Shown in pieces: positions 43,742-49,700 of a DNA stretch of 64,000 bases (position 1 is its first letter; every line of letters begins with the position of its first letter). Below the pieces are notes generated by a model that saw only the letters and a list, made by a program, of their open reading frames with translations, was not told the DNA's origin and did not search any database. Position numbers and translations under genes: made by a program. This DNA is from Anolis carolinensis (taxonomy: Eukaryota), in assembly GCF_035594765.1 (NCBI RefSeq), contig NC_085846.1, forward strand, positions 7,055,190 to 7,119,189, given 5' to 3'.

Positions 43742-46700
43742 CTAGCTTTGTGTTCTGCTTTTGACTTGACGTGGGATGTTCTTGTACAGATCCTCTTCTT
43801 TTTCCTCTTCTCCCAGTACCTTGAATCCATTCTCCATCTTTGACGCTGGCTTCGGTTGTGTCAGAACAAGAGGTGCAAAGCTTGTCAAGTGTGATGGCTG
43901 AGCGCTAGAAAAGCAAAGAAAAAATTGAGGGCGACTTTAAACCAAAGTGTGGTTGTGTGTGGCCCCTAAGGCTGTTTTCATGGCACTCAAAGCTCCCAAG
44001 GCCACCTTTTCCTGAACTTCCTCCAAAAAGATAATTTACTTTTTGAGATAGTTATGGGGCACTCCTGTATTGTCTAAAGATTAAAAAAAACAGCACTCAT
44101 TAAATGAATCTATTGATTTAACTATGTGTGCATTTACACTGTAGAATGAATGCAATTTGACACCACTTTAACTGCCTTGGCTCAATGCTATGAACTGAGA
44201 TTTGTAGTTTGGTTAAGCACAGCACTCTTTGGCAGAGAAGGCTAAAGACGATGTAAAAATACATTTCCCATTATTCAATAGCATTGAGCCACAGCAGTGA
44301 AAGTAGTGCCAAACTGAATTAATTCTACATTGTTGATGCACCCTAATGCTGGATCTACACTGCCATATAATCCAGTTTCTGAATCCAGATTATCTGCTTT
44401 GAGCTGGACTATCCTAGTCTGCACTGTCATATAACCGAGCTCAAAGTAGATAATACAGATTTAGGAACCAGATTATATGGCCGTGTAGAAGGTGTGAGGA
44501 TTTGTAAAAGAGGCACCATGATGTGGTGAGTTGACTGGAAAGGGCATGTGTCGATGGCTGATTGGCTGAGTTAGCCAGGAGCCAGAATTCTGATTGGCTG
44601 CTGCCTCTAGCTTGGTGCTGAGACAAACGGTTTTAACTGCCACTTTCATCTCTGAGAGTAGCTGACTGGAACTGATCAGGAAGGAAATGGCTGCCATACT
44701 CTCCGAAGCCTGATTATTTATAAGGCAAATGAGGCATATTTAAAGACTGTTAAAAGGCACTGTTTATTCCCTATGTTCTCAGTGTGAAATCAATATTGTT
44801 GCCCTGTTTGATCTTTTGAACTGAAGTATAGATACTGTTACTGTTACAGTGACCTTTTATTATACTGCAGGGTTTATCTTGATTCAGAAACTGTGGTAAA
44901 GCTTCTATTTATTTATTTCTACAACCCCCAACAGATGGGCCTTAGACACAAATTCATTCAAATTGCAAGAAAGGGAGACTCCGGCCTCATCTACATCGCC
45001 ATGTAAAATCCAGACTGGCAGTGTAAATTCATATAATCCAGTTCAAAGAAGATAATCTCAATATTGTATGGCAGTGTAGATGGGACCTCCATCAAAACAT
45101 TAGGAAGCACTCCCTGATGGAAAGAGGTGTTTGACAATTTATATTATTGCCTATGAAGATTGTGGAGTTTCTTTCTTTAGGTGTCTTTAAACAGGTTGGA
45201 TGGCTGTTCTGTGCATTCATTGTTTGAATAGATGGGATCCGATACAATTCCATCATTCTACCTTTACCTGTATAATGGGCAATTAAGACGTCTCATTTCA
45301 ACATATTCGAAATAATTTTCTTCCTTGTGTTCCTCTGGCCGAACTGTTTCCTGGCGTTTTGGTGCTTAAACGGAAAACAAAGACAAAGAGGATGAGTGAA
45401 AAATGTGATATTAATCTTGTTATAGATATCTTTGTGATAATGATACTGCAATTTATGGATGGAAAGAACATTTGCTGGAAAAGGCCTCCGAACTCTTGGA
45501 AAAACCCCATCTGGAAGAACAGAACAGCTGAGCTAATTTTGCATAGTTTTCCTCTGGTGTTTGCACATCCCAATGTAAGGAGTAATTATGTTGAGCAGAA
45601 ATGTAGGTGTTACTCTGCACAAAAGTGATGATCTTTGTTGAAATAACACTTTTCCTGCTCAGAAAGAAAGCATTTCCTGTGCACAAAACACTGTTTCCTG
45701 AACAACCCCCCCCCCATTTATTTTAATCAAGAAAAATCAAAACTCACATAAGCTTCTACAGAGTAATTTTGTGTAATGTTTACATTAAGCAGAAAACTTA
45801 GGCAGAAAAAATGACATGCAAAAAGGTACAGAATTGGGGGTGATGCCTGTCTCAACAGCAATCCATGTGAAAAAGATCTTGGAGTCCTCACAGGGAACAA
45901 ATTAAACATGAGCCAATAATGTCATGTGGTGGCAAAAAAAGCCAATGGGATTTTGGCCTGCATAAATATAGTGTCTAGATTCAGGTAAACCATGCTACCC
46001 TTCTATTCTGCCTTGGTCAGACCACACCTGGAATTACTCTGTGTCCAATTCTGGGCACAGCATTGAAGGGAAATGTTGACAAGCTGGAATGTGTCCAGAA
46101 GAGGGCGACTAAAAGGATCAAGGGTCTGGAGAACAAGCCCTGTGAGGAGCGGCTTAAAGAGCTGGACATGTTTAGCCTGCAGAAGAAAAGGCTGAGAGGA
46201 GACACGATAGCCATGTACAAATATGTGAGGGGAAGTCATAGGGAGGATGGAGCAAGCTTCTGGAGACTAGGATGCGGAACAATGGCTTCAAACTACAGGA
46301 AAGGAGATTCCACCTGAACATTAAGAAGAACTTCCTCACTATGAGAGCTGTTTAGCAGTGGAACTCTCTGCCCCAAAGTGTGTTGGAAGCTCCTTCTTTG
46401 GAGGCTTTTAAGCAGAGGCTGAATGGCCATCTGTTGGGGGTGCTTTGAATGTGATTTTCCTACTTCTTGGTAGAATAGGGCTACACTGGATAGCCTACGA
46501 GATCTCTTCCATCTCTAGGATTTTATGATTCTAAGATGCATAGATAATTTGCATTGAAGTCAGTTTTGACTTTTGATGACCACTTCATAGGGCCTTCTAT
46601 GCAATATTTCTTCAGAGGCAGGTTGTAATTGTCATCTTTGGAAGTGACACTGTCATACAACTGAATTATACAACAATGTGATTTGCCCAAGGCATCCCAG

Positions 46701-49700
46701 CTGGGCTTCTATGGCTGGTCAAGGATTCAAACCCAGATCTCGCACTCAAACCAGACCAAACCTAAAAACCTCCAGTGAAGAAGACCTTTTATGCATTAGC
46801 TCCCAGCAGCAGTGTTAGATTATTTGCTGTTTCTTCCGAGTGGTCCTTCTGCATCTCTAAGGGCAGATCTCGTGCTGGGCTAAGAAATGACACATTCTCA
46901 ATCCCGTCACGTACGTACCGCTCTTCTTTCTCCCGAAATAGTAAGCCAGAGGGACCATGGGGAGCACCATCGCAAGCGGAATTACCATCCACACATACAA
47001 CAATGTTGATGGTTCGCAAGGCTTCGGGGCCAAGACTGTAAGAAATAATTTAAAGGGTGTTTACATTTTTAGGTTGGTGTTGTAATGCTCCCTGTTCTTG
47101 TGGTTGGAGGAACTGGAAAAAGTGCTCATAATACTGGCTGCTAACTTTAGTAGTCACCCTTTAAAGCATTATACGAGGGTTGAATGAAAAGTAATGCCTC
47201 CACCTTCGTAACTCCTCAACAGATGGCAGTACTGGTATGCAGCAGGTCCTGGTTTGTTCAGTAAACTCTCCTCTATACTTCCATTTGGCAGGAAGCCTTA
47301 GCATTGAATGGTTGTGTTGTTAAAGTGCAAAGTATGGAACCCTGCGCAGACGGTCAGTCAATGCGACTTAAGCAACGTGCAGTCATTGAATTCTTGACAG
47401 CAGAATGTATCACCCCAAAGGAGATTCATCAGAGAATGCAAGCTGTTTGTGGTGATTGTGTTGATATGAGTCCTGTGCATCGTTGGGAGAGTAAGTTTAA
47501 AGATGTTGAGGTGGGAACATCTGACTTGCGTGACAAACAAAGAGTTGGATGTCCTGTGACAGCAACCACTGAGTTTCACAAGCAAAAGGTTGACAGATTG
47601 ATTCAGGATGATTGTTGTATCACTCAGAGAGAAATTTCAAGCATAATTGGCATTTCACAAGAACGTGTGGGTCACATTATTGCTTTGCTTGGCTGTCGGA
47701 AGATCTGTGCATGATGGGTCCTGTGAGACACTGGTTGCAGAAACAGACTTGTGACGGCTTCAGAAAACTTGTTCATCGTTGGCAGAAATGTATCCAATTG
47801 TCTGGTGATGATGTGGAAGAGTGAATAGTGGTAGTTAAAGAGCACCTTATAAGGATTATTTCTGTGTTTGATTTATGAAAATATTCCCATCCAAACCCTA
47901 GTAACGAAGGTGGAGGCATTACTTTTCATTCAACCCTTGGTTTCTTGGGGCTGGTTTCCAGAATCATAGTCTAGTACTCTAACCACTACATCACTCTAGG
48001 TTAACAGCAGTTACATTAGGTTATCACATTGATAAAGGAGATGGTGATTATTTCTAGGTTCTGCCCATCGCAAGACAAAATGACTCACCTGTGAGATACA
48101 CCGTCTGGCTCCGGGGAGAGAGGGTCCACCCATTGCTGCTTTTTTCCTCATACCTGCAGGTGAATATCCCAGTTTGAATGGGTCCCGCATGTAGGATATG
48201 TACAGAGGAAGCCTTTGGAGAAGCCTCTTCAAGTTCTCTGGACGTTGGAGGTTCCTCAAGGCTGGAGGTCATCATCTCCACCTCATTCCTGAAGAAGTGG
48301 AACTTTCTCTTTCTGTTGGTCTGGTGGGTTGAGCAAGTCAAGAGCAAAGACTCTCCTTCGTTCATTCCTCTGGGTGGAGGATCCAACCATAGGATGGGAG
48401 GAGGAAGGGGATCTGGAGGAATCGTCCACAAAGAAGTTAGGTTCAACGTGGGCCATGAAATGCCTTGCTGACTAAGACTTTCAGTGATGCACCATTGGAT
48501 GTAGTGTTGCATCAAAAGCCAGTGCATCTACACCAGGCATGGACAAACTTCGGCCCTCCAGGTGTTTTGGACTTCAACTCCCACCATTCCTAACAGCCGG
48601 TAGGCTGTTAGGAATGGTGGGAGTTGAAGTCCAAAACACCTGGAGGGCCGAAGTTTGCCCATGCCTGATCTACACTCTAGTTTGATATCATTTTAACCAC
48701 TATGGCCCAAGCTATGGAGTCATAGCAGTTAGGGCCCTTCCAGACAGGCCCTATATCCCAGGATTTTCTGTTTATCCCAGACTCATATAATCCAGTTCAA
48801 AGCAGAAAACCTGGGATCAGATCCTGGAATCTGTAGGTCTGTCTGGAAGGACCCTTAGAGTGATGTCAAACTGCTTTAATTCTACATGGTAGATGCACCC
48901 TGAAAACAAAACCTCATTGATCAGTGTATGTCAGGATTTTCCTAGCATGTTCTGCCCTGGTAGAATCCAAGAGAAAACAAGATATAGACCTCACCCAACA
49001 CCGAGATCTTGATCGCTTTGCTTTCCAGGTACAGAGTCTCCTGCCCAGGCTCCTCAACGTAGTAAATGCAGGAGAACATCCCGCTGTCTTGTGGAGAGAG
49101 GTGCAGGACGTGCGTGAAGTTCCCCGTCAACAATGGGAGATGGGAGAAATAGAGGATCCACTTGCGGTTAGTAAACTGGACCCTTGATATGCGATGGTTT
49201 GCTGCAGCTGAACATGTGAGGTTTATAGATTCTCCGGTACTATAGACTTCTTGTTTGGGGGAAACAGAGAACGAAGGAGGACCTGGGAGGCAAAGTGTTC
49301 GGAGGCGAGAATGTTAAAGAAAGTAAAGAAATACTGCCTGAATTCAGCTATATTTGGTCTTCCATTTCCACAGGTTATGCACTTACAGGTTCTATCACTA
49401 CTACTACTACTACTACTACTACCACTACTATTTTTGTAGTACTGTAAAGTCTCACTTATCCAACATAAACGGGCCAGCAAAACGTTGGATAAGCAAAAAT
49501 GTTGGATAATAAGGAGGGATTAAATAAATGCCTATTAAACATCAAATTACATTATGATTTTACAAATTACGCACCAAAACATCATGTTTTACAACAAATT
49601 GACAGGAAAAGCAGTTCAATACACAGTAACGTTATGTAGTAATTACTGTATTTACGAATTTAGCACCAAAACATGGCAATGTATTGAAAACATTGATTAC

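Follow-up and report, generated by a model that had tools for sequence, protein, structure and literature searches.

A two-Ig receptor of Anolis carolinensis with predicted PI3K and Grb2 docking sites in its cytoplasmic tail

A receptor gene, called here gene A, is described from the minus strand of a 64,000-nucleotide stretch of the Anolis carolinensis genome (assembly GCF_035594765.1, contig NC_085846.1, positions 7,055,190 to 7,119,189; the whole stretch is the window, and positions given below are those of the window). The gene lies at the 3′ edge of a cluster of receptor genes, and its product A is proposed to signal by itself through direct docking of the p85 subunit of PI3K and of Grb2 on two tyrosines of its tail, with a likely co-activating effect. 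We put the probability of this reading, which is drawn from the sequence, at about 0.6. Taken on their own, the docking of p85 and Grb2 on the tail appears quite probable from the motifs, and a net activating effect is somewhat favoured.

The mechanism would be that of a two-Ig (immunoglobulin) membrane receptor which works without an FcR-gamma or DAP adaptor. Upon ligand binding the tail tyrosines would be phosphorylated, probably by a Src-family kinase; the phosphorylated YVEM would then bind p85 and the phosphorylated YKNI would bind Grb2, and a co-activating signal would be the outcome.

Tail motifs of gene A and their conservation

The two motifs lie in one frame, the YxxM (x being any residue) in a ten-residue stretch at 45323-45294 and the YxN in a twelve-residue stretch at 43810-43775, both on the minus strand and both with acidic residues before the tyrosine, as the original prediction made from this DNA had stated. 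YVEM is exactly the pYVEM of the Y721 site of CSF-1R, reported in the relevant part of PMC5483887 to bind p85 directly, and YKNI fits the Grb2 SH2 consensus pY-E/V/Q/K-N-V/I/L as given in PMC3694890, which counts a yKNI peptide from PTPN11 among the Grb2 binders; it is because of these two agreements that direct recruitment of both proteins is predicted. The transmembrane segment of A has no Arg or Lys, which had also been noticed earlier, and no Asp or Glu either.

The tail was aligned with those of the neighbouring genes B and C, which carry two immunoreceptor tyrosine-based inhibitory motifs (ITIMs). At the proximal ITIM the tyrosine of B and C (VAYAQL, VAYAHL) is a Phe in A (TSFAPL), and at the distal ITIM B and C have VMYSDI and VMYGEI where A has DLYKNI, which is not an ITIM because of the Asp at position -2; the earlier description of a proximal position lacking tyrosine and a distal one reading LYKNI is thus borne out. 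No pair of the activating type (ITAM pattern, YxxL/I-x6-8-YxxL/I; immunoreceptor tyrosine-based activation motif) was found among the four tail tyrosines of A, and a search of the tail exon against solved structures gave no match. When the 90-residue tail was shuffled 100,000 times, a YxxM appeared in 8.6% of the shuffles, a YxN in 16.8% and both in 1.4%; the mere presence of the motifs is therefore modest evidence, and it is their conservation which carries the case.

Homologues were collected by a search among cluster representatives (best 150 of 381 matches) and by a profile search (54 matches). A tree of the membrane-proximal Ig domain (Ig2), in which the tail was not used, was built from 41 of 196 proteins together with the exons of B; with a cut-off of 60 bits per domain it has 56 rows and 106 columns, and it was rooted at the midpoint. 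Eight of the rows fall with A into a single clade with support 95/92, namely Anolis, Sceloporus, Rhineura, Lacerta, Zootoca and three Podarcis, and the clade is split into Anolis plus Sceloporus (iguanians) and Rhineura plus the five lacertids (lacertoids). YxxM, as YVEM or YLEM, is present in all eight members, and YxN with a hydrophobic residue at +3, as YKNI or YNNI, in seven of them, so conservation in other squamates, named by the original prediction as a check, was found across two to three independent lineages. The orthologue transmembrane segments are uncharged, as in A.

When Anolis, Sceloporus and three lacertids are compared, the number of invariant positions in the 90-residue tail is 23, among them the Y and M of the first motif and the Y and N of the second. 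The other two tail tyrosines of A vary among these five species, the first of them (EENY) being missing in lacertids and Rhineura, and the proximal ITIM tyrosine is a Phe in all five. Among 95 distinct homologue tails YxxM occurs in 21, YxN in 20 and both in nine; all nine belong to the A clade, and the ITIM pattern [ILVS]xYxx[ILV] has no match in any of these nine A-type tails.

An ITIM-bearing ancestor may be supposed for the A lineage, in which the tyrosine of the proximal ITIM would have become Phe, the distal ITIM would have been turned into YxN and the membrane-proximal YxxM position would have been kept. The YxxM of A aligns with YLGM in a gecko paralogue (P0024, Paroedura), which also has two ITIMs, and with YLRT in a cordylid paralogue (P0013, Hemicordylus). 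The simplest reading of this alignment would be an ancestor with three tyrosines, of which the first disappeared from B and C, and the second from A, where the third was remodelled; the tail of P0024 is a possible intermediate.

Exon structure, spliced contigs and the 5′ end of gene A

The coordinates of all features are collected in Table 1. The five exons of gene A have AG/GT ends throughout and give a single open frame of two Ig domains (Ig_2/Ig_3 type), the transmembrane segment and the tail, and their translation is identical to residues 78-405 of P0001, an NCBI "uncharacterised protein" of Anolis carolinensis (LOC103280461). In a structure model of the Sceloporus orthologue (mean pLDDT confidence score 75.9) two Ig folds and a membrane helix are followed by a tail of low confidence, which is probably disordered.

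Table 1. Features of gene A and of its neighbours in the window (positions and strand)
Feature	Position	Strand	Remark
Gene A, Ig domain 1 exon	48995..49282	-	single match in genome search
Gene A, Ig domain 2 exon	48089..48412	-	membrane-proximal type common to the cluster; 33-41% identity to paralogues
Gene A, stalk and transmembrane exon	46919..47035	-	segment 47006-46932 uncharged
Gene A, cytoplasmic exon 1	45268..45364	-	
Gene A, last coding exon	43742..43904	-	stop included
YVEM	45294..45305	-	predicted docking site for PI3K p85; compatible with a YxxPhi sorting signal too
YKNI	43775..43786	-	preceded by acidic residues; predicted docking site for Grb2, at the distal-ITIM position of B/C
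TSFAPL	43868..43885	-	Phe for Tyr at the proximal-ITIM position of B/C
Gene A, probable ancestral signal-peptide exon 1 (3′ end), inferred	51031..51062	-	AAG where paralogues have ATG
Open frame ending in signal-peptide mini-exon	50565..50835	-	donor after 50565; RefSeq isoform X1 start inside
Neighbour B	54265..60633	-	three Ig exons; transmembrane exon without charge; two ITIMs
Neighbour C (3′ part in window)	61786..64000	-	uncharged transmembrane exon, two ITIMs

Contigs from four of 24 listed sequencing runs were aligned to the window; they are called RNA-like on the guess of the program, which is supported only by their lack of introns, and no record says RNA. One contig each from three runs of three studies (X7, X9 and X14) extends, free of introns, from the Ig2 exon over the transmembrane exon as far as the last one, and a contig of a further run (X6) has the transmembrane exon and tail exon 1 joined. 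Along the contigs, positions 46921 and 43903 are 101 apart in X7, X9 and X14, and positions 48412 and 43903 are 539 apart in X7 and X9, both as in the model, so the contigs splice the cytoplasmic exons in the predicted frame. Alternative frames, in which tail exon 1 is skipped or an AG seven bases downstream is used, run into an early stop; neither splice form was seen in the aligned contigs, which drop rare forms. This second AG (43898) lies near the exon junction of the paralogues, and the last intron is of phase 2 in gene A (45268/43904) and of phase 0 in B and C (B: 55919/54441).

Within 43718-49285 the contigs differ from the window at 5-8 sites per exon in the Ig2, transmembrane and last exons and at none in the Ig1 exon and tail exon 1, and several of the same variants are present in P0003. 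The listed differences comprise 8 residue changes and 4 silent codons; they leave the motifs untouched and add no charge to the membrane segment. Parts of two introns of gene A (45750-46560 and 47180-47990) appear to be high-copy repeats, judged from very high contig depth.

The 5′ end of the gene is less regular. For the paralogues, the sequence predicts a signal peptide split between an exon of 25 bases and a mini-exon of 39 bases; the mini-exon of B (59821-59850, minus strand) has 30 bases, 9 fewer than in close paralogues. For A, the candidate for exon 1 was the top one of 174 donor-anchored frames compared with the Sceloporus N-terminus, with a weak score of 13 against 10 for the next. 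An open frame of 98 codons with two in-frame Met runs into the signal-like segment of A, and RefSeq isoform X1 starts in this upstream frame with about 57 extra N-terminal residues, the start of X2 being inside Ig1. An ordinary signal peptide is present in the orthologues from Sceloporus and the lacertids, and the Anolis copy seems no longer to have its normal start codon. A CTG lies in frame and in good context in the probable first exon of A and is a speculative start.

Direction of the signal and other explanations

The motifs by themselves do not tell whether the signal is activating or damping. Several observations weigh against a co-activating receptor that signals through both sites. 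CTLA-4, TIGIT and FCRL1 use the same types of motif for damping or trafficking. The eight orthologues amount to three lineages for YxxM and two for YxN, and the annotated Rhineura tail stops before the YxN position. The hypergeometric P of 0.0035 for the invariant motif residues is flattered by the tendency of the aligner to anchor on tyrosines. The A-type tail was found in none of the listed snake, gecko, skink and turtle matches of searches that were limited. An Ig2-only search for longer proteins returned A alone (1 of 247 candidates), and a search with the Sceloporus transmembrane segment and tail returned only Sceloporus and A (2 of 57); both searches being word-based, their blanks are no proof that such a tail is lacking in snakes, geckos or anguimorphs. 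The Ig2 branch is long in the Anolis copy (0.51, against 0.14 for Sceloporus), its probable first exon has no in-frame ATG, and its expected mini-exon acceptor has no AG. The original prediction of an adaptor-independent, costimulatory counterpart within the family is kept in part: direct docking of p85 and Grb2 stands as a strong inference, and the word costimulatory goes too far, because the same motifs serve endocytosis or inhibition in those three receptors.

A modulatory or inhibitory receptor without ITIMs, in which Grb2 at YKNI would bring SHIP-1 and give a damped or mixed output, is unlikely in our judgement, although it has precedents. Grb2 bound at Y281 of FCRL1 is reported in the sections of PMC13071153 and PMC10562807 concerned to bring SHIP-1, with ERK lowered and calcium flux raised, and recruitment of Grb2 and SHIP1 through TIGIT's ITT-like motif is reported in the title of a reference cited in PMC6628015. 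The YKNI of A occupies the former distal-ITIM position and retains the Ile at +3. Against such a role, the A clade lost both ITIM signatures and yet has YxxM in eight of eight members, and the cluster already holds seven genes with two ITIMs. It is improbable that A is an endocytic, scavenging or decoy receptor, with the unphosphorylated YxxM and YxxI serving as AP-2 signals or with particle uptake driven by PI3K and Grb2, as in CTLA-4, CEACAM3 and CD300f. Both motifs of A do fit the sorting signal YxxPhi; the YVKM of CTLA-4 binds PI3K when phosphorylated and AP-2 when not, according to the part of PMC4255484 on this tail; endocytic decoys are included in reptile CEACAM families in the text seen of PMC13278318; and CD300f signals through PI3K and Grb2 motifs, as reported in the corresponding part of PMC7247439. 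The ectodomain of A is distant from the paralogues, Ig1 finding none of them in the genome search, unlike that of a decoy which mimics its partner, and uptake driven by PI3K would be compatible with direct docking in any case. Sorting signals accept several hydrophobic residues, and the invariant Met at +3 and Asn at +2, together with the upstream acidic runs, fit the selectivity of SH2 domains better and point to docking.

A reading in which the receptor type is real in other lizards, with the Anolis copy degenerating or failing to reach the surface through damage to its start codon and signal peptide, is very improbable. The irregular first exon and acceptor, the two RefSeq starts and the long Ig2 branch are what it would explain; it is opposed by the intact five-exon frame with canonical splice sites, the spliced contigs from three studies, the motifs untouched by the listed variants, the 98-codon frame with its two Met and an Ig1 domain identical to that of Sceloporus at 70 of 95 residues.

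The receptor cluster, its family and known systems

A genome search with the Ig2 of gene A gave 17 matches, all inside about 145 kb of contig C6, and one match each was obtained with Ig1 and with the last exon, Ig1 finding no paralogue. The cluster (window and 200 kb beyond) has 18 transmembrane exons, ten bearing Arg, seven uncharged, and that of A; all seven uncharged paralogue exons are followed by a last exon with two ITIMs. The ten Arg-type genes are likely activating and the seven two-ITIM genes likely inhibitory. The paralogues have three Ig exons where A has two. These seventeen three-Ig genes stand in near-identical duplicated blocks from 54265 of the window onward (C6 about 7109450-7249300), and among them one stop in Ig1, two partial Ig matches and a LINE-like insertion in the last gene were observed. 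On one flank (1-42000 of the window) lie exons of a KIF4-like kinesin and clustered histone genes (H1, H2A, H2B, H3, H4); the other has NOP9, and an exon on that side without a Pfam match is presumably RABGGTA-like.

The original prediction had placed these genes with LILR, KIR and CHIR; this placement is not upheld, the FcR/FCRL matches being at least as good and the locus being different. By sequence profile FCRL5 came first (E 1.7e-39 and 1.5e-63, each a total across the many domains of FCRL5), and a deeper profile gave a tie of FCRL4 (67.6 bits) and LILRB2 (67.3). In the fold search, Fc receptors are interspersed with OSCAR, LILR and KIR at 13-20% identity, CHIR-AB1 being at rank 60, and Atlas returned Allergin-1, HIDE1, PECAM-1 and FCRL look-alikes at 0.96-0.97 and named no family. 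FCRL genes have the signal peptide on exons of 30 and 21 bases as stated in the passage used from PMC2413239, and the exons predicted here are of other sizes (25 and 39 bases, with 30 in B). The FCRL-locus neighbours CD5L and KIRREL1 (PMC7940838) were not among the genes recognised in the flanks of 43 kb on the left and 70 kb on the right, where frames of at least 70 or at least 95 codons were listed. Activating members of the leukocyte receptor complex (LRC) have an NxxR transmembrane motif in the account quoted from PMC6557307; in the ten Arg-type genes an Asn, where upstream of the Arg, is nine residues away. The LRC neighbours TTYH1, LENG8, TSEN34 and MBOAT7 were not recognised in the same flanks, in which no gene-by-gene search was made. 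The most fitting description of the cluster is a paired family related to FcR and LRC, intermediate between FcR/FCRL and LILR/KIR and with a locus of its own.

Named homologues come from turtles, alligator, a bird, a frog, sharks and rays, their membership in one family being a candidate one. In the turtle members P0005, P0170 and P0174 the transmembrane segment is uncharged and the short tail contains YSPM, the homologues P0061, P0141 and P0196 have YVN, and the snake members P0119 and P0137 have a YxN at the distal ITIM position; motifs of the YxxM/YxN type seem to recur within the receptor family.

Among known receptors, FCRL1 is like A in being a C2-type Ig receptor of an FcR-related family which signals through its own tail, where Y281ENV binds Grb2, and the mouse form, too, combines two Ig domains with a tail about 100 residues long, according to the relevant parts of PMC10562807. 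FCRL1 differs in its ITAM-like tyrosine pairs and, in the human form, a Glu in the transmembrane segment, neither of which A has, and A differs in its separate YxxM, its locus and its signal-peptide exon sizes. That A is the FCRL1 orthologue is not supported. CD28, ICOS and DAP10 share the YxxM for p85, and the Asn of the CD28 YMNM also binds Grb2, as described in the part of PMC4255484 dealing with it; in A the two functions would be on two tyrosines about 50 residues apart, below two C2-like Ig domains. Membership of A in the CD28 family is ruled out by these two domains of Ig_2/Ig_3 type. The CD28 family has a single V-type domain with a B7-binding loop.

The kinase insert of CSF-1R matches the first motif of A as given above. 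Unlike CSF-1R, A has no kinase domain and needs a separate kinase, and the likeness is convergent. The neighbouring Grb2 site of CSF-1R presumably matches the distal motif of A as well. CD300f is a paired-family member with PI3K- and Grb2-binding tail motifs (described in the portion of PMC7247439 cited above) but retains ITIMs and has a V-type domain; the gecko P0024, with its YxxM and two ITIMs, resembles CD300f more than A does. Tandem Ig receptors with Arg-bearing and ITIM-bearing members, like those of the cluster, are the Xenopus XFL, the fish LITR and the mammalian LILR/KIR, as described in parts of PMC2413239, PMC6557307 and PMC4810170. XFL receptors there form two classes, with YxxL/I/V tails or an NxxR transmembrane segment, and the lizard cluster has Arg without NxxR spacing and A as a third class. 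The catfish IpLITR 1.1b combines YxN with ITIMs, according to PMC4810170, unlike the ITIM-free A.

Adaptor-independent PI3K/Grb2 tails in paired families are thus already known from FCRL1, CD300f and catfish LITR. No description of the lizard cluster, or of a tail of the A type in reptiles, was found in the literature covered, subscription journals and supplements being outside its scope, and the text seen of PMC4016189 mentions PIGR alone for the anole. A wider proposal is put forward as tentative: A may be a conserved, single-copy lizard receptor whose two-ITIM inhibitory tail was turned into an activating tail of the PI3K-plus-Grb2 kind, a CD28-like switch, within an undescribed paired family at a third locus (neither LRC nor FCRL) with relatives from sharks and frogs to turtles and birds.

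The signalling logic being known from FCRL1, CD28 and CD300f, the surprise of the finding is limited. Paired receptors usually consist of ITIM-bearing inhibitors and adaptor-coupled activators; the cluster has both, and in addition one stable third tail design, whose derivation from the ITIM form can be followed at the level of single residues. If the docking is true, gene A would be a clean natural example of a change of output made through a few substitutions in the tail, and it would give a handle on this reptile receptor family.

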